Shown piece after piece: positions 407 through 64,000 of a DNA stretch of 64,000 nucleotides. The stretch lies in the IMG/VR virus record IMGVR_UViG_3300029959_001566. One strand, given 5' to 3'. The notes beneath the pieces are model-generated. The model worked only from the letters and a program-made list of their open reading frames with translations, was not told the DNA's origin and ran no database searches. Numbering within the stretch: position 1 is the stretch's first letter; each line of letters starts with the position of its first letter. Position numbers and translations under genes: made by a program. Origin of the DNA: a virus.

Positions 407-491
407 AAGTTATGATAGAGTCTTCCTGGGTATTAAACTTTCCTACCGCATACTACCATAAGCTTTATTACTTAGTGGTATAACATACTAC

Positions 492-755
492 TTGGTGAGA
501 AGCACAATGCAGCAGATTTATAATGAAAGTGATATCGGGAGAGAGGTTCGAACAGGCAAGCAGGTCTTCACAGTTGTCAGCAACCTGAACGGCGGAGTCA
601 AGCTGGTCAGAAAGTGCAGCCGCAAGCACGCAGCCAGCAAGCAGGCCAGGTTCCTGGCGATGGAGGCCGAAGCTGCCGAGAGAAGCTTCAAGCGCAACCA
701 GGACATGCACAAATTGACAGTGAACGATCTTCTAATATGCAAGGAAGTGGCCTGA
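492..755 (+). CDS. Hypothetical protein (start may be ATG 507)
   Basis: First gene of a tightly packed + strand operon. Confidence 0.6.
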   Translation: MVRSTMQQIYNESDIGREVRTGKQVFTVVSNLNGGVKLVRKCSRKHAASKQARFLAMEAEAAERSFKRNQDMHKLTVNDLLICKEVA

Positions 756-756
756 A

Positions 757-975
757 ATGGCCTCTTCTCTTTCTTCAGCAGCGGGCTTAAAGCCCGAAGA
801 GCATCTTGGCTGGAAGCGCCTCATCACTCAGGCCCTGGCATGGCATCGCTTCGAGGTTGTTTATATGCAGAATGGCGAGATGCGCACGGGCTTTACGTTT
901 GGTGAGGATCTTCCGGCTGCAGCAGTGCATCTGAAAGAACAGGGAATCGAAGTGATAGGGTTACAGGTGACATAG
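757..975 (+). CDS. Hypothetical protein
   Basis: Packed between neighbours with 1-3 nt gaps. Confidence 0.65.
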   Translation: MASSLSSAAGLKPEEHLGWKRLITQALAWHRFEVVYMQNGEMRTGFTFGEDLPAAAVHLKEQGIEVIGLQVT

Positions 976-978
976 AAA

Positions 979-1599
979 ATGCAGGCTCCAGCCATCGCTA
1001 AAAAGCTCCTCGAAGTCATGAGAGACTGTGCATACATCCAGAAAGACGGCACAAACGACTTTCACAGATACAGATACGTAAGCGCGGCTCATATCATGGA
1101 GCGGGTCAACGAGTCCCTGGTAAAGCACGGCCTGGCCACGGCCCTGGAAGAGGTTGAGGTGGTCAGCCAGGTAGAGAAGGCCAACAGCAAGGGCAGCATA
1201 GATATCCTGGTCACTGTCAGAGTCCACATCAAGATTATCGACGTGGACACAGGCGAGGTCCTGGTGATCAAGGGCCTGGGATCTGGGCAGGACCCGGCAG
1301 ATAAGGGCATAGCAAAGGCTCAGACGCAGGCCTTGAAGATAGCCTGGATGAGCACGCTCGCCATATCGACCGGAGAAGACCCAGAGGCCGATGAGAGGAC
1401 GGATGCCGAGAGCGAGGCTGATAAGAAGCTGGGTACCTGTGAGAGGCTGAAGCGAGAAATCCAGGAGAAGGCAAAGGCCAAAGGGATTGGACCGGAGGAG
1501 CTCATGAAGATCATCTCCAGGAAGTTCAGGGCCGGGGGCATGGGAGATCTGACAGAGGCTCAGAAGAGAGACCTTCTGGAAGCATTGGAGGCATATTGA
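979..1599 (+). CDS. ERF-family single-strand annealing recombinase
   Basis: FHRYRYVSAAHI...GSGQDPADKGIAKAQTQALK...ISTGEDPEAD match ERF motifs. Confidence 0.85.
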   Translation: MQAPAIAKKLLEVMRDCAYIQKDGTNDFHRYRYVSAAHIMERVNESLVKHGLATALEEVEVVSQVEKANSKGSIDILVTVRVHIKIIDVDTGEVLVIKGLGSGQDPADKGIAKAQTQALKIAWMSTLAISTGEDPEADERTDAESEADKKLGTCERLKREIQEKAKAKGIGPEELMKIISRKFRAGGMGDLTEAQKRDLLEALEAY

Positions 1600-2048
1600 G
1601 GATATCAAGAGCAGACCAAAGAATTCTGTACCGTGGATTCATATCAGAGATGCTAGGAAGGCCTCTCAGAAACGACGAAGACGTGCATCATATAAACGGC
1701 AATCATGACGACGATAGGCCGGAGAACCTCATGGTGATGTTTCATAAGGAACATTTCGAGCACCATAGGTCAAGCGCAGTCGTCAGGCGCGGGCATCTTA
1801 AATTCAGATACCCTCTTCCGACCACGTTGAGGTATAACACGATTTGTCCCGAATGCAATTCGTATTTTATTCATGGCGGGTACGGTCTCTGTGTCGATTG
1901 TTATAGTATGGCAATGGAAGGCGAATATCTAAAGTCGATGCGGGGGATGATAGCGATAGATGAAGGGGGTGCGATATTCGTTTTTGGGCGCAAGCCCAAA
2001 TCGTTATCTCGGGAACGTGTAAACCATTTACCTCCTCAGCAGCGCTAA
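1596..2048 (+). CDS. HNH endonuclease with C-terminal Cys motifs
   Basis: EDVHHINGNHDDDRPENL..H..H; CPEC/CVDC. Confidence 0.8.
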   Translation: MRISRADQRILYRGFISEMLGRPLRNDEDVHHINGNHDDDRPENLMVMFHKEHFEHHRSSAVVRRGHLKFRYPLPTTLRYNTICPECNSYFIHGGYGLCVDCYSMAMEGEYLKSMRGMIAIDEGGAIFVFGRKPKSLSRERVNHLPPQQR

Positions 2049-2099
2049 CCCCATCCCTTCACATTTCTATTAAATCATGTCTTGGAAGATGCGAGTATA

Positions 2100-2619
2100 T
2101 GGTACTACTGAAGGGCAACTATTCGGAATTACCGAATAGTTCAAGTTTTTTCAAATGATTACTGCCCTTCTCACCGCATCGACTCTCTCGGGACTTCTTT
2201 TTGGGCGGCAGGACCTTTATTTTCATAGAAAATTGTATATACTGCTCGGACTCATCAAGGCATGGCTATTTCCTGAATGGACAGAGGTTCGACTCCTCGG
2301 GCAGGCAGCCGTAAACGCGGGTTCGAATCCCGTCCCGGGAACAGGGCATCCAGGATGAATCGGGCCTAAGTACACGGTCTGCCTAAAATGCGGCGAGTTT
2401 CACCGGGAGTTCGCGCCGCGTTGGGTGAGTTAAAACCCGGTGACCTGATTTCATGGCAGCCTTCAGAGTAACAGTCTGCGACGGGGGCATACGATCGCCC
2501 GGGCTTCTAGCAGCATAAGCCTTCTGATTGGTAGTAATAGATTGCCATATCCATTGGTGGCATATGTGGTACTACCAAAGGGCAACTGTTAGGAATCGCC
2601 GAATAGTTCAAGTTTTTTC
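2100..2619 (+). repeat. Two-copy 53-bp direct repeat (2100-2152, 2567-2619), each a hairpin plus T-tract
   Basis: 47/53 identical; copy 1 has a perfect 10-bp stem AACTATTCGG/CCGAATAGTT followed by T6. Confidence 0.85.
2242..2340 (+). ncRNA. Degenerate tRNA-like element(s) with two tandem T-arms
   Basis: GAGG-TTCGACT-CCTC (2284-2298) and GCGGG-TTCGAAT-CCCGT (2317-2333); CTGCTC/GGGCAG acceptor-like stem; too short for a canonical tRNA. Confidence 0.45.
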
Positions 2620-2767
2620 CGAGGTTACCAGAGGCTCTATAAGCCCGGATCTCTCTCCGGCTGGCATGATATTGCCTGGGCAGAGGAGATCTTGGAGCTA
2701 CCAGCATGGCGAGGGCAACAGGGCTATGAGCAGAAGAAAGAGAAAGCTGTAGAGATAGAGCTGCAAG

Positions 2768-3181
2768 CTATTCATAGAATGCCACCTGCACGAACTCCAG
2801 GCCTTCAGCGGCATGATATAGCCCATCGACCCTAAAGTGCGCAGGCCCCTTGTATCCTGGATCGAAGAACGGTCCCTGCACGGAAATGCCCCGGAGGGTC
2901 ATATCTTTCACAGGCGAGAAGATCCCCAGACACTCACCGGGCTCCAGAATCTCAGCAGTTCTAAAGATCACTGGATGGTGAAGAGTCCACCATTTTTGAC
3001 CATCCTTCGAGGTCTTGAAGTCGCCGTATGGGCTCAAGCGGTTATCTCTAGCCTCTTCTTCGAGCGCTGGCCAGAAGACACCGCCTAAGGTCAGACGAAC
3101 GCTTTTAGGCCGGGCCTGTTCCGGCCTGGCACCTCTGACCAGGCCCCTTTCTATGATCTGATGGCCGGAAAGAAGACTCAT
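2768..3181 (-). CDS. dCTP deaminase/dUTPase-like trimeric-fold protein (ORF track extends it to 3343 via a probable frameshift fusion)
   Basis: MSLLSGHQII start, LEPGECL, FFDPGYKG, FVQVAF motifs. Confidence 0.7.
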   Translation of the reverse strand: MSLLSGHQIIERGLVRGARPEQARPKSVRLTLGGVFWPALEEEARDNRLSPYGDFKTSKDGQKWWTLHHPVIFRTAEILEPGECLGIFSPVKDMTLRGISVQGPFFDPGYKGPAHFRVDGLYHAAEGLEFVQVAFYE

Positions 3182-3339
3182 GGCCATCCTTCCTGCACTA
3201 TACCCCTCGCGTTCCCCCCAAACCACCCACCAAGCCAGTATAAGCCTCTCTTTCAGGCACACTGGTTCAGGCAGAAAGCGGGCCTGGAGCTTGACGCCTT
3301 CGCATTCGTAGTTATGGAAATGAGAAGCCTCTAAGATGC

Positions 3340-4591: not shown

Positions 4592-5304
4592 TCCGTGTTA
4601 TCCTCCCCATGCCCCAGGTGATAGGAGAGTTCTCCTCTAGCGGCATCGATCATATACCACTGACCACTCTTATCCTGTGCAAAGTCCACCGACCAGAATC
4701 CCGGAACGAGACGTGAAAAGACTTCAGCCAGGGCTGTGAGATACCCCACTTCATTAGGCATCTCTTCATTCAGCCTTGATAGATGCTCTTTCCAGTCTGG
4801 ATAATCAGGTTTCTCTATGGCCCCCTCTGGCCAATACGGGTGCCTACACTGGACCTTACCATCCTCCACGAAAAAACGTCTCTCTCTGGATATGGGGAGC
4901 TCTCCATCAAAGGCTTTGAATCGGGAGTACAGGGGCAGGAGTTCCCTGAAGACAAGGGCCCGTGGTGCTGGCAAGAATCGCATGAGCTGCCAGTTCACCA
5001 GGGCAGCCACGTGCCCCACGAGCTTATCCTCAGATTCTACATAGCACGTGTCTTTCCAGTCATGCTTCGCGCTGCCCTGGTCAGTTCTGAGGAATAAAGG
5101 ATACCCGATCCGGGCGGCAGACTCTTTGATCTGAGAATACAATGCATCTGAAATCATGACACCGTCCAGGAGGTTCATTGCCTCGATGGATTCCTCGGGG
5201 GTTAGATTGAGGATGATGGTCTTAGGGACTGGTAGTATATCTTTTATTTTTGGAAACCAGGTAGGCAGGGCTGATTCTATCTGGAGATTAGTTAATGCGA
5301 TCAT
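4588..5304 (-). CDS. ATP-grasp (R2K/D123-like) protein; likely start ATG 5304 rather than 5571
   Basis: PLFLRTDQGSAKHDW, ERRFFVEDG, WSVDFA..WYMIDAARG. Confidence 0.7.
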   Translation of the reverse strand: MIALTNLQIESALPTWFPKIKDILPVPKTIILNLTPEESIEAMNLLDGVMISDALYSQIKESAARIGYPLFLRTDQGSAKHDWKDTCYVESEDKLVGHVAALVNWQLMRFLPAPRALVFRELLPLYSRFKAFDGELPISRERRFFVEDGKVQCRHPYWPEGAIEKPDYPDWKEHLSRLNEEMPNEVGYLTALAEVFSRLVPGFWSVDFAQDKSGQWYMIDAARGELSYHLGHGEDNTE

Positions 5305-5613
5305 AAGAATCTCTGTTCTATATGCGGTCAAAGTATTTAGTGTTAGCTGAGGTAGAGCATAGCGTTTTATGCTAAAATCTTGGGTATTTTGCTTGTCATG
5401 CGGCACGGCGCTGCATAGCGTCTTATGTATCGAGTGCCCCCTCCAAGTACATGCAGAATTACATAAGACACGGTGGCGCAGCGTGGTGATTGTATGCTGA
5501 GACCAATTTGTTGGCGTCAACGAAATGATGGGGCATAGCGATAATAGCATTTGCGTGTCGTGGAAAGGCACTTGATGGCACGCAAATGGTGCTGAAGGAT
5601 GTATTGAAAAGAG

Positions 5614-7315: not shown

Positions 7316-8206
7316 TCAAACGCATTGGGTTTGAATCAGTGCCGAGACTATCATCCCAATGGCATCGATATGGGCAGATCTGTCGATCAAGAAAACTCGT
7401 GCCTTGGATTCATTCTCCTTTTGGAACCTGATTCCGTCAGTGTATTTAGTAATATCAACTATTTTATTAAGCGGGTAGGTAGCATTCTTCTTTTGGCCGA
7501 CGAAAATTACTTTTTTATTTGTCACGTATAGAATTCCTGTATCGGTGACTTTTTGATAGCTCTCTCTGATAGGAGTGCCTCTGAAGCTCCCTGTCCTAAA
7601 TGTAACGCCTTTCGCTACTCGAAAGCTGACTCCGCTACTACTACCCACATAACGCGTTTTTGATAGTTCCTCTAGCAGTTGTGCAGGTATAGCAAAATGA
7701 CACACTTCGCCCCCTTTAAGCAGGATATTGACCTGTATAGTTGGAAGAATGCCCTGCGCCAAGATTGTGAGCATTCTGACATCGAGAAGGTTTTGCCGCG
7801 TCTTTTCGGGCAGGTTTGCTTCGGATATTCCAAGAGATCTCAGCATCTCCTCCAGTTCCACTTCCTCGATTTGGTTTATCCAGCCTCTTGAGCAAATTTC
7901 ATTTATCTTTTGATCGCATAGAGCTAAATCAGTCTTTGCGGTCGAGAGACGCAATTTTGCTAGTTCCTTATTAGCTTCCTCGATCTCCTCGTCAGTCAGC
8001 CCAAGGTTGGTTTTAAGCTCTTGAAGAGACCGCTCTTCCTCTTTAGAGAGGTACTTATCTTTTCCAAAATATTTAACCGCATCCAGATATCGCCGGATCT
8101 TTTTATCCTTTTCAGCCTTACAGTCCGGGCACACTGTCTGAGGGCCAAAAAGCTTTCTAAGCCCAGAAGCCCCAAATTCCTTACCGCAGTTAGTACAAAG
8201 AGCCAT
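7316..8206 (-). CDS. Zn-ribbon + helical + PH-like domain moron protein
   Basis: CTNC/CPDC at N-terminus; DTGILYVTNKKVIF PH-like motif; visibly AT-richer than the flanks. Confidence 0.65.
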   Translation of the reverse strand: MALCTNCGKEFGASGLRKLFGPQTVCPDCKAEKDKKIRRYLDAVKYFGKDKYLSKEEERSLQELKTNLGLTDEEIEEANKELAKLRLSTAKTDLALCDQKINEICSRGWINQIEEVELEEMLRSLGISEANLPEKTRQNLLDVRMLTILAQGILPTIQVNILLKGGEVCHFAIPAQLLEELSKTRYVGSSSGVSFRVAKGVTFRTGSFRGTPIRESYQKVTDTGILYVTNKKVIFVGQKKNATYPLNKIVDITKYTDGIRFQKENESKARVFLIDRSAHIDAIGMIVSALIQTQCV

Positions 8207-8223
8207 TCATCAAGCCCCCCTTA

Positions 8224-8694
8224 TTAAGCTAAACCCCATCTTCCCAGGAAATCGAGTGACGCAGATTCTTTCTTTGCAAGTCTGTATACATCATAGATCG
8301 CGATAGCCGCTATTATATATACGCCCCATTCGCCCGCCAGGATTCCAATAATAAGAGCTATCAGAAAGACTATCAGCCCCCGTTTCAGTCGTTTTACATA
8401 CCAGTACCCTGCCGGTATGAGGATCAACGTCAACACGGCTGCTATGACAGGATTCCTCTCTTTGGTTGGTTCTATCGGCGGTGTATTATTCTCTTTGATT
8501 GGTGATACTGTGGATGACTGTATTAAGCCACATTTTGTGCAAATCTCGGCACCGGGACTTAATTCAGCACCGCAGTCTGAGCACGTTTTGCCTGCAATCG
8601 CCTCTTGTTCTGCCAGTGATATCCCTCCAAGACAGTAGATGCTTCTTAATGTAGATGAAAAGACTTTTGGTATCCAACAAATAGTTGAGTTCAA
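8224..8694 (-). CDS. Zn-ribbon + TM2-like membrane protein (true start probably downstream of 8694)
   Basis: CSDC/CTKC; NPVIAAVLTLILIPAGYWY pattern. Confidence 0.65.
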   Translation of the reverse strand: MNSTICWIPKVFSSTLRSIYCLGGISLAEQEAIAGKTCSDCGAELSPGAEICTKCGLIQSSTVSPIKENNTPPIEPTKERNPVIAAVLTLILIPAGYWYVKRLKRGLIVFLIALIIGILAGEWGVYIIAAIAIYDVYRLAKKESASLDFLGRWGLA

Positions 8695-8872
8695 CCATCA
8701 ACCTTTTTCTGGGGGTGATAGTCGGGAATCTTTTTTAGTATAATATCACTCTCATCTTCTCCTTCTCCCAACTAACCGTTATACCGAAACCTGGCAAAGT
8801 CCTGCCAGGACCGTACGGGAATTGAACCCTCAAAGAAAATCTGAAAATTAGTTGATAGTTGAACTCAACTAT
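8681..8872. repeat. 192-bp cassette bounded by 22-bp inverted repeats (cassette 1)
   Basis: 8681-8702 ATAGTTGAGTTCAACCATCAAC vs reverse complement of 8851-8872 ATAGTTGAGTTCAACTATCAAC: 21/22. Confidence 0.9.
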
Positions 8873-9288
8873 CTCAGGACCAGGATCTTTTGCCGTTTAT
8901 CTTTGTAGAATGGCTTCTGTTCTATATCCTGGGGCATGGAGTCAACCAACTTGGAGAAGGTTGGGGCATCCAGGTGCATCTTTTCCCTGGCAGTCTTGGA
9001 TAGAAGCTTACCATCATTCGCGGCTATCAGAGCCTTGAGAACATCGCCCCTATCCCTCTGCGCTGGCTGGGGGTCTGGCTGAAGCGTTATTTTCAGGGAT
9101 TTGATGAGCTTAAGCTGGATCTCATCCTGCTCAGAGAGATTAGTTATCTCTTTATCGAAGCCTTCGCGAAACATCCTCAACTCTTTAGATAGGTCATCGC
9201 ATCTCTCTCTGAGATTCGCCATCTCCTGAATCAGGGCAGCTATAGTCGGGTCCAGGATGATAATCTGGGATTGAGGAGATGCGCTCAT
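8869..9288 (-). CDS. Coiled-coil + winged-helix DNA-binding protein (P1)
   Basis: Heptad N-terminal half; LLSKTAREKMHLDAPTFSKLV HTH; wing ending KILVLR; stop codon lies inside the cassette 1 arm. Confidence 0.7.
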   Translation of the reverse strand: MSASPQSQIIILDPTIAALIQEMANLRERCDDLSKELRMFREGFDKEITNLSEQDEIQLKLIKSLKITLQPDPQPAQRDRGDVLKALIAANDGKLLSKTAREKMHLDAPTFSKLVDSMPQDIEQKPFYKDKRQKILVLR

Positions 9289-9399: not shown

Positions 9400-9591
9400 T
9401 CATGCAGAAACGAGAGCTTCAGCGCCCATCTGAGGGTTTAAAGCTGAACTCTCGCTTTTTGCACTAAATCCTCTTTTAATAGTAATCTCTACAAGGTCGC
9501 CCGGTTCGATTCCCATGGCGTCGCGTATGTGCTTGGGAATCATGACCCTACCTATATTATCGGTCTTCAGGGTCGTGGTAATCTCATGCAT
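9400..9591 (-). CDS. AbrB/MazE/SpoVT-family regulator
   Basis: GRVMIPKHIRDAMGIEPGDLVEI signature. Confidence 0.9.
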   Translation of the reverse strand: MHEITTTLKTDNIGRVMIPKHIRDAMGIEPGDLVEITIKRGFSAKSESSALNPQMGAEALVSA

Positions 9592-12952: not shown

Positions 12953-13240
12953 ATGAGACGCGCACTGAACGCCTGCGCCGCGCAGCAGGTCTTAAAAGGC
13001 CTTCACTTCGAGGGGAGGGTCCAAAAAGTGACAGGCATAGGCGACGTCTGCCTTGAGGATATCAAGCTGCCTGTAGGCGATGAGCCATATGCATGGATCA
13101 ATAGGCGAGAGTGGCATGGTCCTTTACCCCATGCAGGCGATGCGGTTTCAGGAGTGGCTGATATCGCAGGCTATACCAGGCTCAACGGCAGCTGCGATCT
13201 GAGTCTCGGGAACGCCAGGATGCTGCAGGTGACGCTATGA
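12953..13240 (+). CDS. Hypothetical protein
   Basis: ATGA overlaps on both sides. Confidence 0.6.
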   Translation: MRRALNACAAQQVLKGLHFEGRVQKVTGIGDVCLEDIKLPVGDEPYAWINRREWHGPLPHAGDAVSGVADIAGYTRLNGSCDLSLGNARMLQVTL

Positions 13241-14472
13241 CCTCACCTAAAACTCTCCAGATCCTCAAAATCCTTTTCGGAGATACGATCTCTCTGCAGG
13301 AGTTTGGCCGTGTGCAGGATGCTGCTGAAGAGATTGATGATATAGTACTCAGGATCGAAAGCGACCAGGACCCCGATACAGGATTTCTCTTACCGAAAGG
13401 CTGTAGATCGCTTCCTGGAACCAAGATCTCAGCTCGGAAGTTCGATGAGAAGATCAGCAAGCTCTTCCATATGAACTACACAGATCGCCAAATTTCAGAA
13501 GCACTGGCAAAAGAGAACATCTACAGATCACCATCCACAGTCAAAGAGCATCGTACTCATATGGGACTCCTGCGAGGCCAGGGTCCTGGATGGAGTAAGA
13601 AAGACGTAGATCCTGCTCTCGTGATAGAGCTGAAGGACTCCGGGCTGTCATGGCCTGGGGTTAAGGCTGAGGTCCTCAAGAGGACAGGAATCGAGATCTC
13701 AGCATCTGCTCTGCAGGATCGGTATTATGGTGCCAAAGATGAAGCTGAAGTTGTTCAGGAGTCTGCTGCAGAGGAAGTCCCCTCAGCAGGGCTGCGCAGC
13801 GCTGCACAGAATAACGACAGCAATATAATTTGCCATCCGGCGCCGGATCTCTCAGACGCAATGGTGCGCAACGTTGCAGAGGCGGACCAGTCCGGACCTG
13901 TCCGGCCGACTCATGAACCTTCATCGAATCCAGATACTCTTCCAGAGCCCGAACATCCATATGAGCACTCTCAGCCCGCCACCATCTGCTACAAAGGCCC
14001 AAGCATCTCAATGTCTCCTGAAGAGGCCGGCCAGATAGCCAAGGGGAGCCCGCTGGCGGAAGATATCAGGACCAAGGCCCTGGACCTGGTAGATTCCGGC
14101 AAGACCTGCAAAGAAGCTGCTCAAATGATCGGGGTCGAGATGACTCTGGCAAGGTCCTGGGTTGGAAATCGAAAAGCTCAGGAAGCGTTCGCCAGAAAGA
14201 GGGCAGCCAGGGCAGAAGAGCCCTTGATAGCCCCAGAAGTTAAGCCAGATCCCATCCAGTACGCAGCTCCAAAGCCAGCTCCCGCAGAGGAAAAGCCCGC
14301 ACTTCAGGATGATGAGATTGATGACCTGATCTGGGATTTCATGGAGAAGGGCTGCAAGTCATTCATGCAGGCCCGGCTAGGTCTGAAAGCCAGGGGTGTT
14401 GGCATGTCAGTGGGCGATATCGCTGACAGATATGACGCCATGAAGGCTGAGAAGGGGGCTGAGGAAGAATGA
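13237..14472 (+). CDS. Multi-HTH protein with Pro/Glu-rich linkers
   Basis: YTDRQISEAL, GLSWPGVK, GKTCKEAAQMIGV HTH-like blocks. Confidence 0.6.
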   Translation: MTSPKTLQILKILFGDTISLQEFGRVQDAAEEIDDIVLRIESDQDPDTGFLLPKGCRSLPGTKISARKFDEKISKLFHMNYTDRQISEALAKENIYRSPSTVKEHRTHMGLLRGQGPGWSKKDVDPALVIELKDSGLSWPGVKAEVLKRTGIEISASALQDRYYGAKDEAEVVQESAAEEVPSAGLRSAAQNNDSNIICHPAPDLSDAMVRNVAEADQSGPVRPTHEPSSNPDTLPEPEHPYEHSQPATICYKGPSISMSPEEAGQIAKGSPLAEDIRTKALDLVDSGKTCKEAAQMIGVEMTLARSWVGNRKAQEAFARKRAARAEEPLIAPEVKPDPIQYAAPKPAPAEEKPALQDDEIDDLIWDFMEKGCKSFMQARLGLKARGVGMSVGDIADRYDAMKAEKGAEEE

Positions 14473-15915: not shown

Positions 15916-16185
15916 ATGCCCATAACCCCATGGTCGACCAACCAGGCACTAGCAGCCAAGGGCATCATAGGCGATGTGGCTCTCTTTCCAAACCATCCTT
16001 TCACCATGGACGAAGTTTTTCCAGAAACGCCGAAGTCTGCACGCGGCGCCATGGCCACATTCCTAAAAGCAAAGGTACTCATTTCGCAAGCAGGACGAAG
16101 AGAGATTCGGCATGATTGGATCGTCACTCTCTGGAAGACGACTGAAGATCATAAGAGGTGGCTGAGCTGGAGGGCCAGAGCTTGA
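15916..16185 (+). CDS. Probable winged-helix protein
   Basis: FTMDEVF..MATFLKAKVL..TLWK. Confidence 0.5.
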   Translation: MPITPWSTNQALAAKGIIGDVALFPNHPFTMDEVFPETPKSARGAMATFLKAKVLISQAGRREIRHDWIVTLWKTTEDHKRWLSWRARA

Positions 16186-16234
16186 CGGCAGACAGTGAAA
16201 GCCCTTTGGAGAGATCCAGCAGCTCAGAGGGGAG

Positions 16235-16630
16235 GTGCTGAGATTGGCGGCAGAGGTGCAGCAGCTCAGGGCAGACCTGGCAGCACAGAGCGAACGCGCT
16301 AGGCTGCTGAGTGGCAAGATGATAGACTCCGAGATGACCCAGGACGATATGGTAGCCTCTCTCAACAGGCTTGAGAGGGCCGCCAAAGACGCAGCGCCCA
16401 TAACAGAGTCATCAAAGGCACGGCTCGATCAGTTAGCATCTGAACTGGAAAAGCGCGGCAAGCGAGGCCAAAAGGGCGTCACCTATGCAGAGGCGGGAAA
16501 GATCCTGGGGCTGAGCAAATCAATGATCTGCAGGCTGAGAGGTCAGATTGGCTCCGACCCCAGATTCAATATCAGGTGGCACCCGGTCAAGAAGAATAAG
16601 AAAATCATCTCCTTAAAGAAACTGAGGTGA
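16235..16630 (+). CDS. Coiled-coil + winged-helix DNA-binding protein (P2); 5' end possibly frameshifted
   Basis: Heptads, then VTYAEAGKILGLSKSMICRL HTH; wing ending KIISLKKLR; stop codon abuts cassette 2. Confidence 0.75.
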   Translation: MLRLAAEVQQLRADLAAQSERARLLSGKMIDSEMTQDDMVASLNRLERAAKDAAPITESSKARLDQLASELEKRGKRGQKGVTYAEAGKILGLSKSMICRLRGQIGSDPRFNIRWHPVKKNKKIISLKKLR

Positions 16631-16631
16631 A

Positions 16632-16830
16632 AACGTTGATTCAACGTTCAACGATGTGGGGTGAGATAGGGATAGGTCGATAGTGAATGTAGCAACTCTG
16701 AGTAAAAAAGTATGCTGAATACATATCACATTACGTATAGATAGAAAAGAGAGTATGGATAGGAGTATATAAACAGCACAACGTTCTGCCTTTGAGTTGA
16801 ACTCGAATCGTTGAACGTTGAGTTTACGTT
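16632..16830. repeat. 199-bp cassette bounded by 24-bp inverted repeats (cassette 2)
   Basis: Perfect 15-bp core TCAACGTTCAACGAT (16641-16655) / ATCGTTGAACGTTGA (16807-16821); 21/24 when extended. Confidence 0.9.
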
Positions 16831-37915: not shown

Positions 37916-39397
37916 TTGACTATGGCCGACATTGATTACTTGAGCCCAGCCAGCGAGGTCAACTGGTCGCTACACATCAAGGTCCTATCGAGGGCCACGG
38001 GCGGCACTGGGGTAGTGAACGGCAATCGTCTGGCCCCAACCAGTCCAGCTAGTATGAGTTTCACGTCCGACGCGGGGCGTATCAAGATTGATGGCACACC
38101 GGCAGATACTGGGGTCGGTACAGGGACGATCAGCACTGCCCACCCGAGTCTGCCCAGGATAGATATTATTATCAGAGATACGGCTGGCGCGGTCCAGATC
38201 GTGGCCGGCACACCTGCTGTAATAGAGGATACCATCGCGGGTCTCGGTAACTGGCACCAGTATTTCTCACCACTGCCACAGGAGGCCGTCCCGGCCGGTG
38301 CTATACTTGGAGCCATCTATGTAGCTGCGGGCGCTACCGAGATAACGGCAGATGACATATGGATGTTTGCCGGAAAGGTCGAGGATCTGGCGTTGAGTGT
38401 GGGAAATCCCGGTCTCGATTCAAGATCAGCGTCCGAGAAGGCAATCAAAACCGCATTAGATTCCAAAGTCACTGCCGTACTTCGACAAACTATCACGAAT
38501 CTGGCTTCGGATGTAGCCAGCACCGCCGCTCTGACCACTGCTCTAGCGACGAAAGTCACTGCCGTACTTCGACAAACCATCACGAATTCAGCCTCGGATG
38601 TAGCGAGCACTGCAGCCTTAACAGCAGCCCTGGCAGCCAAAGTCACTGCGGCCCTGCAACAGACCATCACGAATTCAGCCTCGGATGTAGCGAGCACTGC
38701 AGCCTTAACAGCAGCCCTGGCAGCCAAAGTCACTGCTGTACTTCGGCAAAGTATCACGAATTCGGCTTCCGATGTGGCCAGTACAGCGGCTCTGACCACG
38801 GCCCTGGCAGCCAAAGTCACTGCTGTACTTCGGCAAAGTATCACGAATTCGGCTTCCGATGTGGCCAGTACAGCGGCTCTGACCACGGCCCTGGCAGCCA
38901 AAGTCACTGCGGCCCTGCAACAGACCATAACCAACTCAGCTTCCGATGTGGCCAGTACAGCGGCTCTGACCACAGCCCTGGCAGCCAAACTCGGCACATC
39001 CGCACAGGCTGCAGACTCCGCTAAACTGGGGGGCGTCGATTCTTCCAAGGCGCTCACCAGAGGCATCGAGATCCCTTACAGCCGCGATGGTGTGGTGATA
39101 CCCACCGGCGTCCTGCTGGATTTCGAGATTCCTTTCAAATGCACCATCACTGCGGCTCGTTTGGTCGCAGACCAGACAGGCAGCATAGCAATAGCGGTTT
39201 GGAAGGATACTTACGCAAACTTTCCGCCAACGGCTGCAGACCTGATCGACACATTCTCTATCAGCAGTGCGACCAAAAGCGAAGAGACTGGGCTCGCGTT
39301 GGCCGTGGCCGCTGGGAGCTGGATCAGACTCAATGTCAATAGCTGTGCATCGATTACCAGATTCACCTTGAGCCTGACTGCGACGGTGGTGCAATGA
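37916..39397 (+). CDS. Fibre-like structural protein with 29-aa repeats
   Basis: PRIDII N-terminal block, six repeats, C-terminal beta-sandwich. Confidence 0.7.
   Translation: MTMADIDYLSPASEVNWSLHIKVLSRATGGTGVVNGNRLAPTSPASMSFTSDAGRIKIDGTPADTGVGTGTISTAHPSLPRIDIIIRDTAGAVQIVAGTPAVIEDTIAGLGNWHQYFSPLPQEAVPAGAILGAIYVAAGATEITADDIWMFAGKVEDLALSVGNPGLDSRSASEKAIKTALDSKVTAVLRQTITNLASDVASTAALTTALATKVTAVLRQTITNSASDVASTAALTAALAAKVTAALQQTITNSASDVASTAALTAALAAKVTAVLRQSITNSASDVASTAALTTALAAKVTAVLRQSITNSASDVASTAALTTALAAKVTAALQQTITNSASDVASTAALTTALAAKLGTSAQAADSAKLGGVDSSKALTRGIEIPYSRDGVVIPTGVLLDFEIPFKCTITAARLVADQTGSIAIAVWKDTYANFPPTAADLIDTFSISSATKSEETGLALAVAAGSWIRLNVNSCASITRFTLSLTATVVQ
38465..38986 (+). repeat. Six 87-bp (29-aa) coding tandem repeats
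   Basis: KVTAxLxQxITNxASDVASTAALTxALAx x6; copies 4 and 5 look identical at DNA level. Confidence 0.92.
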
Positions 39398-39891
39398 GTC
39401 CTGCCGTCACCTTGCGACCTAATGGTGTCGGATTACTTTCGGAATTAACGTGTGTTGGCGATAGTCCTGGGTGGAAGTGTGTCGATGATGTGGTGGCCGA
39501 TGATGGCACTACTCGTGTACGTTCAGCACACGGAGATATTGGATGGCATGCTGACTTATACACAATACCTTATCCTGACGTCATGTCTGGAAGAATCACA
39601 AATGTCACAGTCACCGCCAGGGGGTTCACTTCTAGTAATGGTATGAAAATTGAGATAGTAACACACGACACTTTGGTAGTTGGCACTATAAATTCCCCAA
39701 GTTCATACACCAACTGGTCCGAGTCCTGGGATACCAACCCGGTAACTGGAATTGCTTGGACTTGGGAAGACATCCAAAATCTTCAGATAGGCATTGCTAT
39801 TTTCGAGATTCAAGGATCGGGAACCTGTACTCAATTGTATGCAGTCGTGACCTACCTACCTTACCCAAGCTGCGGCGTCCTGATGATCTGA
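39394..39891 (+). CDS. Beta-rich fibre/virion accessory protein
   Basis: NPVTGIAWTWEDIQNLQIG motif; AT-richer codons. Confidence 0.6.
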   Translation: MSPAVTLRPNGVGLLSELTCVGDSPGWKCVDDVVADDGTTRVRSAHGDIGWHADLYTIPYPDVMSGRITNVTVTARGFTSSNGMKIEIVTHDTLVVGTINSPSSYTNWSESWDTNPVTGIAWTWEDIQNLQIGIAIFEIQGSGTCTQLYAVVTYLPYPSCGVLMI

Positions 39892-39897
39892 GGCTAC

Positions 39898-40257
39898 ATG
39901 GATTTCACCCCAGAACTAGAGGTCGCTGCACAGAGCTTCAAGACTGCCTGGCAGGCGACAATTGATGCAGGAGTGCCCCCGCCAAACGCTCCAACCACTA
40001 TCATGAAAAAGGGTCATGGCCTGACCCTGAGAGAAACATGGGCCTACAGAGAAGGTATAAAGACAAAAGTTTTTTCAGACGGTGCAGAAATTGGGCCGGA
40101 TGACCCCGAAATCTCAGAATATGTCTACTACAACGAGCACGGCACCGTCGATACCCCAGCTCGCCCGGCTTGCGGCATAACGGTTGATGGTCCTGGTGAG
40201 AAGATCCTCGACGAGCTGGAGAATGATATCGCTGATAAAGAAGTGTCAATATTTTAG
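39898..40257 (+). CDS. HK97 gp10-like neck/tail-completion protein (copy 1)
   Basis: PPNAPTTIMKKG..YVYYNEHGT..PARP. Confidence 0.65.
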   Translation: MDFTPELEVAAQSFKTAWQATIDAGVPPPNAPTTIMKKGHGLTLRETWAYREGIKTKVFSDGAEIGPDDPEISEYVYYNEHGTVDTPARPACGITVDGPGEKILDELENDIADKEVSIF

Positions 40258-40269
40258 AGGTGTTATTAT

Positions 40270-40851
40270 ATGGCGGCAGTAGTGAAGATTGTTGGATTGT
40301 ATGGCAACCCCCTTACAACCACGGAACTAACAATACAGCGGTACAATACCGCAATACCGGGTCAGAGAGACCCCGGCCTCTCCTTCCCAAACAACATGCC
40401 GACAGTTGAAGGAACCGTCTCAAGATCCTGCTGGCAGTTCACAGGTTGTCAGGTCACAGGCGGCACATACTCACAGCTATCATACTGGAGATGGGGGACC
40501 AGCGGGGCTGAAAAGAGCATATGGGGCCTGAACAATGGAATGATACAGGTAGCGCTGAAGGACTCGGGCGCACCAGGTTGCCCGTTTGCGAGTTGTATAC
40601 CCCCAACCGGGATTCAGGATCAGTTTGGATACGACATAAAAGACCCAGATCACGGTATCCCGTTCTATATCAACGAGACAACGCCATGTGCGGACAACCC
40701 GGTAACTGGAATTGCTTGGACTTGGGAAGACATCCAAAATCTTCAGATAGGCATTGCTATTTTCGAGATTCAAGGATCGGGAACCTGTACTCAATTGTAT
40801 GCAGTCGTGACCTACCTACCTTACCCAAGCTGCGGCGTCCTGATGATCTGA
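40270..40851 (+). CDS. Chimeric ORF made by the duplication (N-terminus of 41230 gene + C-terminus of 39394 gene)
   Basis: First 142 aa match 41230..41826; last 51 aa match the end of 39394..39891. Confidence 0.8.
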   Translation: MAAVVKIVGLYGNPLTTTELTIQRYNTAIPGQRDPGLSFPNNMPTVEGTVSRSCWQFTGCQVTGGTYSQLSYWRWGTSGAEKSIWGLNNGMIQVALKDSGAPGCPFASCIPPTGIQDQFGYDIKDPDHGIPFYINETTPCADNPVTGIAWTWEDIQNLQIGIAIFEIQGSGTCTQLYAVVTYLPYPSCGVLMI

Positions 40852-40857
40852 GGCTAC

Positions 40858-41217
40858 ATGGATTTCACCCCAGAACTAGAGGTCGCTGCACAGAGCTTCA
40901 AGACTGCCTGGCAGGCGACAATTGATGCAGGAGTGCCCCCGCCAAACGCTCCAACCACTATCATGAAAAAGGGTCATGGCCTGACCCTGAGAGAAACATG
41001 GGCCTACAGAGAAGGTATAAAGACAAAAGTTTTTTCAGACGGTGCAGAAATTGGGCCGGATGACCCCGAAATCTCAGAATATGTCTACTACAACGAGCAC
41101 GGCACCGTCGATACCCCAGCTCGCCCGGCTTGCGGCATAACGGTTGATGGTCCTGGTGAGAAGATCCTCGACGAGCTGGAGAATGATATCGCTGATAAAG
41201 AAGTGTCAATATTTTAG
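40858..41217 (+). CDS. HK97 gp10-like protein (copy 2, identical)
   Basis: Identical translation to 39898..40257. Confidence 0.65.
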   Translation: MDFTPELEVAAQSFKTAWQATIDAGVPPPNAPTTIMKKGHGLTLRETWAYREGIKTKVFSDGAEIGPDDPEISEYVYYNEHGTVDTPARPACGITVDGPGEKILDELENDIADKEVSIF

Positions 41218-63100: not shown

Positions 63101-64000
63101 TCAGATGCCAAGCTGCGGAATATGTGCCATATAGCTTTCCCTCAACTCCTTTCTATCGATGTGGTTATATATATCTACAGCCTCGTTCCTGACATCGCCT
63201 CTAAGCTCCTTCACGAAGTCCCTGGACATGCCCGACCTAATTAAGTACGTCGTAAACCAATGTCGGCAACAGTGGGGTGTGAAGCGCTCCTCCTGCCGTT
63301 TAGACTCTGGTATATGGAGCCCAACCCTGGTGGCGTGCAGGATCACCAGCTTATGCACCTCGCTGGGGCTGATCCTGGACGATACCCGGCTCGGAAATAG
63401 GGCCCTATCGGTCTTTTCTCTGTTCTCCCTGGCCCTGATCCAGGCTGCCAGGATATTAGCAGTTTCATAATCGAAATATAGTAGCCGATTGCTTCTTTTC
63501 GCTGTTGGCTTCAGCATTACTTCCATTCTCTCCAGGGATACATCATCGACGTCCAGGGCTGCAAGCTCTGCCCGCCTCATCCCGGTCTTAGCCAGCAGGG
63601 TCACTATGGCTTTATCCCGGCTGTCCAGAATAGAGCTGATGAGCATGGCCATTTGTTCTACAGATATGAGCTGCCTGGGGTCCGGCACCTCCTCCTTATA
63701 TCCCTTCAGGTAACGCCGACGAAAGGGTATTATGGGGTTGGTTTCGACCTGGCCCTCTTCTACCAGGTACTCGTAGAAGGTGGACAGGCAGGCAAAGCAA
63801 TGGTCCAGGGACCTCTGCTTTACATCTCTTTCTCTGAACGCCTCCAGGAAGGCTTTGAGGTCTGGCCGGGTCACATCCTGGGGCCGTACTCTCCGGGCCT
63901 CCAGGAATGCACAATACCGCCTGACATATCTATAGTAGGTGCTGGCTGTCTTCATGCGCCTGAGCTGGCAGTCTGCGAGAAAGTCCTCTGCTATACCCAT
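63101..64000 (-). CDS. int: Tyrosine recombinase/integrase (XerC/D-like)
   Basis: TGMR, TAK, HCCRH, LRG and DIY catalytic motifs. Confidence 0.93.
   Translation of the reverse strand: MGIAEDFLADCQLRRMKTASTYYRYVRRYCAFLEARRVRPQDVTRPDLKAFLEAFRERDVKQRSLDHCFACLSTFYEYLVEEGQVETNPIIPFRRRYLKGYKEEVPDPRQLISVEQMAMLISSILDSRDKAIVTLLAKTGMRRAELAALDVDDVSLERMEVMLKPTAKRSNRLLYFDYETANILAAWIRARENREKTDRALFPSRVSSRISPSEVHKLVILHATRVGLHIPESKRQEERFTPHCCRHWFTTYLIRSGMSRDFVKELRGDVRNEAVDIYNHIDRKELRESYMAHIPQLGI

Follow-up and report, generated by a model that had tools for sequence, protein, structure and literature searches.

The stretch of DNA analyzed here (the window; 64,000 nucleotides) belongs to a myovirus-type element with genes for terminase, portal, sheath, baseplate, and an integrase of the tyrosine recombinase type (63101 to 64000), and it appears to span almost all of an independently assembled 65.9-kb contig. 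The P1 gene (8869 to 9288, minus strand) encodes a protein of 139 residues, with a coiled coil (residues 14 to 69) followed by a MarR-like winged helix (residues 75 to 138) whose recognition helix comprises residues 108 to 116. Its stop codon (8869 to 8871, minus strand) lies inside a 22-bp gene-proximal arm (8851 to 8872), and an inverted copy, the distal arm, is located at 8681 to 8702. As stated in a preliminary description of this DNA, the arms are complementary at 21 of 22 positions. They start 170 bp apart, with 148 bp between them, and both read GTTGA-NN-TCAAC-NN-TCAAC. Each arm thus holds three TCAAC pentamers, one inverted and two direct, with a 7-bp period; measured over their outer ends, the two pentamer arrays cover 186 bp. 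The 12-mer GTTGA-NN-TCAAC occurs only twice across the 64-kb window. Between the arms, the minus strand carries a central hairpin (8790 to 8809), with a stem of 6 to 7 bp and an 8-nt loop containing a conserved GA-N-TT, and a conserved purine-rich, AT-rich tract (8728 to 8786; 64% AT in the window, family mean 76%), which is a candidate unwinding element.

The predicted fold of P1 (pLDDT 93) consists of a 56-residue helix and a MarR-like winged helix, with the chain stopping at the wing, and structure comparison with 2nyx gave a Z score of 10.6 and an rmsd of 1.2 over 61 residues. Matches of the family to MarR_2 and DUF7343 in Pfam were weak, and P1 contains no catalytic domain, nuclease, helicase, and ATPase domains all being absent. 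Although the winged helix resembles that of MarR-family regulators, P1 was rejected as a canonical member, lacking dimerization helices on both sides of the winged helix and having its putative cognate site downstream, not upstream, of the gene. Upstream of P1 and on the same strand lies the gene of a small AbrB/MazE-fold regulator (9400 to 9591, minus strand), a family that was found at five loci, directly upstream of the P1-family gene in the three that were mapped, and that probably acts as a copy-control repressor. The DNA past the cassette is a cargo hotspot, with zinc-ribbon membrane proteins in the window (7316 to 8694), a Cap4 nuclease with MC4 in another locus (L007, 1333 to 3124), and toxin-antitoxin-like pairs elsewhere.

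A second module is found at 16235 to 16830. The P2 gene (16235 to 16630, plus strand) encodes a distant coiled-coil and winged-helix protein of 131 residues and is followed by a cassette (16632 to 16830) whose arms (16632 to 16655 and 16807 to 16830) are 88% complementary and carry the same TCAAC pentamer as module 1, but with a dyad spacer of 1 nt. The single-sequence model of P2 has the element order of P1, at a lower pLDDT of 70. The recurrence of the module 1 architecture, as claimed earlier, holds for the gene and its paired arms, whereas P2 shows marginal similarity only to the P1 family (P = 0.013, hhalign) and a profile search detected no homology between the two cassette interiors. 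No close homologs of P2 were found. When the window was scanned for palindrome-containing arms 170 to 240 bp apart, exactly modules 1 and 2 were returned, with none in five shuffles. The coiled-coil-like reading of P2 continues for 13 codons upstream of its GTG start, up to a stop (16158 to 16235); a frame upstream could give P2 a longer N terminus, and P2 may be frameshifted or mis-started.

The P1 family comprises at least 223 clusters at 50% identity. Its named loci lie mainly in Methanotrichaceae genomes, 27 of 105 of which carry a P1-family gene, and the remainder in viral and metagenome contigs. Whether such a cassette follows P1 homologs was a point raised in the preliminary description: a six-pentamer cassette was present at the stop codon in 106 of the 115 distinct homologs with enough flank, and none of 60 random control regions passed the same cut-off, so its usual absence, which would have spoken against the pairing, was not seen. 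Among the nine exceptions, two fell just short of this threshold, and truncated or fused copies account for some. The gene directly before the cassette is always that of a small winged-helix protein. A search with the interior motif alone led to new viral loci, again behind a P1-family gene, together with one cassette of the type found on plasmid pGP6 that had no called ORF upstream and six matches without a cassette. Since the loci were gathered with a 22-sequence core alignment, the sample is biased toward the consensus subfamily. Each genome holds 1 to 6 cassette matches (both strands counted), mostly beside copies of the gene. One fusion of the winged-helix domain to a response-regulator-like protein (L173), a single and probably chimeric case, was left out of the analysis. 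A chimeric cassette was also observed (L122, 965 to 1165), in which the left arm, TTAAC, matches its protein and the right arm has GTAAC/GGAAC, suggesting module exchange through recombination inside the cassette. In one small virus (L009, 4560 to 4886), inverted TGTGCA repeats surround an AT-rich interior behind a divergent gene for a coiled-coil and helix-domain protein (4886 to 5545, minus strand), which is probably a second, degenerate module.

The family displays 18 pentamer types among 83 non-redundant proteins. For every variable base, the column with the highest mutual information, out of 73 columns, was in the recognition helix. Residue 110 determines base 1 (Arg or His with G; Leu, Thr, Gln, or Ala with T; Asn with A), and residue 113 determines base 2 (Glu or Met with G; Arg or Lys with C; Gln with A; Leu with T). 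At residue 108, an acidic side chain goes with G at base 5 in 8 of 8 proteins, which are spread over five helix backgrounds, and any other residue goes with C in 74 of 75. In a leave-one-out prediction, with each protein predicted from proteins less than 75% identical to it, bases 1, 2, and 5 were correct in 73/78, 59/79, and 79/80 cases, compared with 30, 25, and 72 correct when the nearest relative in the rest of the domain was used and 35, 40, and 72 with the commonest base. The specificity types are scattered over separate branches of a helix-free tree, which is built on 63 columns and is poorly resolved, with many open forks. Aligned to the family, P2 has Lys, Met, and Arg at the three code positions; with Met treated like Leu or Thr, the code predicts TCAAC, the actual pentamer downstream of the gene. 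Given this recognition-helix code and the fit of P2 to it, we consider it very likely that each protein directly binds its own adjacent arms, as first proposed from the window alone, a prediction strongly supported by the co-variation of residues and bases. P1 and P2 may also cross-read the direct repeats of each other's arms.

The cassette is also constrained in its dimensions. Its span is 184 to 188 bp in 94 loci, 195 to 197 bp in five, 206 to 207 bp in six, and 176 bp in one doubtful case. The hairpin lies 55, 65 to 66, or 76 to 77 bp from the left arm (the non-standard values coming from well-scored long variants) and 120, 131, or 141 bp from the right arm; i.e., spacing on both sides varies by whole helical turns only, several of the variants being related and representing perhaps four or five independent events. 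The stem of the hairpin is variable in sequence, with 38 different left-stem hexamers among 69 loci, and its pairing is kept in 93.8% of cells versus 27 to 43% in slid controls. On the gene strand, G-T outnumbers A-C in the hairpin by 57:8, while arm-to-arm mismatches (171:165) have no wobble bias. Because the bias is confined to the hairpin, the arms behave like double-stranded protein sites and the hairpin like a single-strand structure. An RNA stem formed by the arms was rejected, given the lack of wobble bias and the matching of spacers at 68% versus 94% for pentamers, and the cassette had no match in Rfam. The AT-rich tract is kept regardless of arm type, which points to a shared factor, probably of the host. 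In addition, a TATA-like stretch, preceded by purines, is located about 25 bp ahead of the distal arm and is less conserved than the hairpin-side tract. Of 126 proteins, 79 have RhxxhE, a known trimer motif (PMC5940361), at the end of their coiled coil, with about 6 expected; the exact form of the motif is absent from P1. A trimer, as predicted from this motif, would suit the three pentamers of each arm. Heat-shock factor likewise binds three pentamers as a trimer.

Next, the genes accompanying the module were considered. Among the window ORFs, Pfam and PHROGs identified an Erf annealing protein, a RusA-like resolvase, and HNH nucleases, and no polymerase, primase, helicase, MCM, Cdc6, or Rep, in agreement with the earlier remark that no replication enzyme is recognizable in the provirus. 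As for a nicking Rep of rolling-circle type (HUH, Rep_trans, or Rep-Arvir), no Rep family had a match among these ORFs, the new Rep-Arvir family being outside the direct search, and P1 has no such domain. A 411-residue ORF (13237 to 14472) was considered as a hidden replicase and rejected, its matches being helix-turn-helix-like only. ParA was found neither in the window nor in L016.

Other carriers of the module include viruses of 13 to 15 kb, tailed viruses of 46 to 66 kb, integrated islands, and plasmid pGP6, in which the protein and arms are divergent and the interior is the same. L016, a circular virus of 13.7 kb (130-nt terminal repeat with 1 mismatch), has two modules pointing apart, and integrase, D5, MCM, and Prim-Pol genes are all absent from it. 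G106, a complete related myovirus, has modules at the two positions of the window, the second of pGP6 type, and Prim-Pol, D5, and MCM genes were not found in it; Prim-Pol and D5 were likewise not found in L009. Thus, the window element, G106, and L016 have no recognizable replication enzyme and two cassettes each, and the primase-helicase carriers G107, G108, G110, L008, L020, and pGP6, some of them incomplete, have one clear cassette each. In so small a sample, the contrast between two cassettes without a helicase and one with it is a lead only. A primase-helicase is present in many carriers, usually several genes away from the module, and three loci (L059, L067, and L074) contain two P1-family genes within about 2 kb. 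The small viruses L016, L009, and L008 encode a major capsid protein and portal, with a terminase in L016 and L009, no recognized tail genes, and no integrase. A GNAT-like gene accompanied by a small partner is present in L016. In L008, a 14-kb virus, the presumed replicase is a protein of 945 residues (485 to 3322) that has an SF2-like helicase region at its N-terminal end and matches AEP-TOTE primase at its C-terminal end.

Taken together, we infer with moderate confidence that the P1 gene and its cassette form a minimal replicon module, in which a non-catalytic and probably trimeric protein binds a cognate origin. P1 would form a parallel trimer whose three winged helices fill the three pentamers of one arm, and the complexes on both arms, sharing one helix face, would loop or wrap about 150 bp. 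The resulting strain could open the AT-rich tract, with the gene strand folding into the hairpin, either holding the bubble open or marking a loading or priming site, and synthesis would be begun by the host MCM and primase or by the element's own primase-helicase if one is encoded. A joint change of two or three helix residues and of the arms would create a new incompatibility group, allowing several elements or modules to coexist per cell. The origin is favored because of the hairpin with its strand bias, the AT-rich tract, the whole-turn phasing, and the complete genomes devoid of recognizable replication enzymes; the fixed linkage to the gene, the six pentamers, and the three-residue code also count for it. 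Moreover, the published archaeal origins of pRN1 (PMC4234260) and SNJ2 (PMC13107129) lie immediately 3' of the rep gene and require a hairpin.

Against an origin, P1 lacks any nuclease, helicase, or ATPase domain, homology to Orc1/Cdc6 was not detected, many carriers have their own primase-helicase, some loci contain two of the genes within about 2 kb, and the cassette interior is unlike the host oriC, which carries ordinary ORB boxes. GC and AT skew track gene direction and are uninformative, and no switch in GC skew is seen at module 2. Furthermore, genomes without a recognizable replication enzyme may encode an unrecognized replication protein. The initiator and origin (or partition) function first guessed for the pair remains the best guess and has gained support from the hairpin, the tract, the phasing, and the enzyme-free complete genomes; many relatives also have a primase-helicase of their own. 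More tentatively, the module may exemplify a new archaeal replicon class. A trimer of 140-residue subunits with no enzyme activity would loop and open the phased 185-bp cassette and then deliver it to the host replisome, with neither Orc1/Cdc6 nor ORB boxes involved; three residues would set specificity, and helicase-less elements would use two divergent cassettes as paired one-way starts.

Known systems share parts of this layout. In the Orc1/Cdc6-ORB oriC, a winged-helix reader likewise recognizes inverted sites that flank AT-rich DNA and adjoin the reader's gene; unlike it, P1 lacks an AAA+ domain, and the cassette resides on mobile elements, with variable private pentamers and an extra hairpin. 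Comparison of P1 with host Cdc6 C termini gave an hhalign probability below 1%, with shallow Cdc6 profiles. ORB boxes were found beside the host cdc6, and the cassette consensus has neither ORB nor G-string and no match to the host oriC. The pRN1 replicon (orf56, orf904, and a downstream stem-loop origin; PMC4234260) has the same order of repressor, protein, and cis element immediately 3' of the gene, and in SNJ2 the Rep-Arvir origin, with a binding site and hairpin 3' of rep (PMC13107129), also follows straight after the gene. In both, as in the cassette, hairpin structure is kept over sequence, the cassette hairpin being much shorter than the 100-nt stem-loop of pRN1. However, the pRN1 protein is a primase-polymerase-helicase and that of SNJ2 a nicking endonuclease, whereas P1, with 139 residues, is non-catalytic and the hairpin sits between two phased arms. 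A replicon of pRN1 type was rejected, since a small winged-helix gene, not a primase-polymerase-helicase, precedes the cassette, and G106, L016, and L009 have no Prim-Pol or D5. EBNA1, LANA, and iteron Rep proteins are sequence-specific origin binders with strict spacing, in which protein and site co-diversify. They resemble the module as non-catalytic or specific binders that would recruit host replication proteins, and differ in sequence and host.

The closest published proteins in layout are the coiled-coil and winged-helix proteins tn2-3p and p12-14p of Thermococcales plasmids and ORF153 of virus PAV1, presented as putative regulators with no site described (PMC3543421, PMC2926602). They share domain order and size with P1 and are conserved in archaeal plasmids and a virus; sequence homology to the P1 family was not detectable. 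In four Thermococcales plasmids, a triple site begins at the stop codon of the coiled-coil and winged-helix gene (L211, 5365 to 5395; L212, 1025 to 1055; L213, 1022 to 1050; L214, 1210 to 1245), with CTCGG twice direct and then inverted at a 10-bp period, a site absent from the available text of both papers. These plasmids have one arm only, a second being absent at 150 to 230 bp. Counting against an origin, this analogue coexists with a primase-polymerase and a helicase, and in pTN2 it lies away from the skew-predicted origin (PMC2926602, PMC3543421).

The main rival explanation is a centromere-like maintenance site, in which the protein would wrap the cassette into a partition complex tethering the element to the nucleoid, the membrane, or a partner; we regard this as possible, if rather unlikely. 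A winged helix with a coiled coil and no catalysis is the parts list of pSK1 Par/RocS (PMC11500499), which likewise combine a DNA-binding helix domain and a coiled coil without an ATPase, and the coexistence with primase-helicases would suit a function independent of replicon type. The parS site of phage P1 has two arms with whole-turn phasing, a trait shared with the cassette, and diversification of specificity also suits partition incompatibility. For the phasing, the coexistence, and the diversification, this reading does as well as an origin. The Thermococcales analogue, moreover, is conserved across all plasmids of its group (PMC3543421). However, a centromere needs neither a one-strand hairpin nor an AT-rich tract, and would leave L016, G106, and the window element without any replication determinant. 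In P1 the domain order is reversed relative to pSK1 Par/RocS, neither a C-terminal membrane helix nor any other evident tail for membrane anchoring is present, and the site, a cassette with two arms, lies 3' of the gene and not at its promoter; DUF536 was not among the top Pfam matches of 126 family members. Partition of type I, II, or III was rejected, as no cognate NTPase gene lies beside P1: of about 120 loci, 6 contain ParA, usually paired with a neighbor of its own, as in L024, L053, L096, L112, and L114. A better partition candidate is a separate protein with an RHH domain, a long coiled coil, and a Trp-rich basic C-terminal tail, found in 18 loci and often convergent on the cassette (L016, 9855 to 10367; L009, 9203 to 9691; L128, 10089 to 10586); its layout recalls RocS and pSK1 Par, with no DUF536 match.

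Less probable still is a looped operator, insulator, or terminator, with P1 repressing or blocking transcription, the hairpin acting as an RNA terminator, and the AT-rich tract as the TATA promoter of the next gene. The MarR-like fold, the sense-strand wobble bias, which suits an RNA hairpin, and the TATA-like stretch after purines ahead of the distal arm are in line with it, and repressor-operator pairs diversify in a similar way. Nevertheless, the following ORF was convergent at 27 of the 45 loci that could be scored, which often leaves such a promoter without a gene to serve; an RNA terminator has no need of whole-turn spacing to both arms, and the tract on the hairpin side is better conserved than the TATA-like stretch.

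The cassette could also be a replication fork trap with polar Ter-like arms or a multimer-resolution site, an explanation we find improbable. RTP, a winged-helix protein with a coiled coil, acts at Ter sites, and cer/psi sites place accessory sites around a recombination core; the inverted asymmetric arms, the length of about 185 bp, the central dyad with its spacer of 6 to 8 nt, and the phasing would fit. Yet the central stem is free in sequence, as seen from its 38 hexamers in 69 loci, unlike the core of a single host recombinase, and has a one-strand wobble bias, and no resolvase was found in L016, L009, or L008. Finally, the earlier alternative of a promoter inverted by the tyrosine recombinase of the provirus, like that of a MITE or a structured RNA with pairing ends, is very improbable despite the inverted repeats at both ends of a short, asymmetric interior and the integrase at 63101 to 64000: in assembled sequence, all 81 informative homologs and all 5 assemblies of the window element have the interior in one orientation, three near-complete carriers have no tyrosine recombinase, arm sequence tracks the helix of the neighboring protein, the copy number is not high and gene independent as in MITEs, and arms without wobble bias, like the negative Rfam search, speak against RNA.

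The module is therefore none of Orc1/ORB, pRN1-type replicons, NTPase-based or Par/RocS partition systems, invertible promoters, or MITEs, although its layout resembles the first two. The module is real and widespread, and no description of this Methanothrix gene-cassette pair was found in the literature searched, subscription papers being outside that coverage. Similar coiled-coil and winged-helix proteins had been published for Thermococcales plasmids and PAV1 (PMC3543421). Many archaeal viruses and plasmids have no recognizable replication protein, and their mode of replication is an open question (PMC13107129). The module is a candidate replicon of 0.9 kb, directly testable in a Methanosarcina host. 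Were it an origin, it would account for how several groups of viruses of a major acetate-using methanogen replicate, and it might supply methanogen genetics with small replicons that are compatible with one another. Irrespective of function, about 18 natural protein-site pairs governed mainly by three residues offer an unusually clean DNA-recognition code.

Several repeats were also observed elsewhere in the window. An exact 300-bp repeat (39735 to 40034 and 40695 to 40994) reflects a duplicated two-gene unit with a 960-bp period, and an 87-bp tandem repeat (38376 to 39071) lies within a structural gene. In the left early region, a 57-bp direct repeat with 88% identity (2096 to 2152 and 2563 to 2619) is possibly a duplicated promoter or operator.
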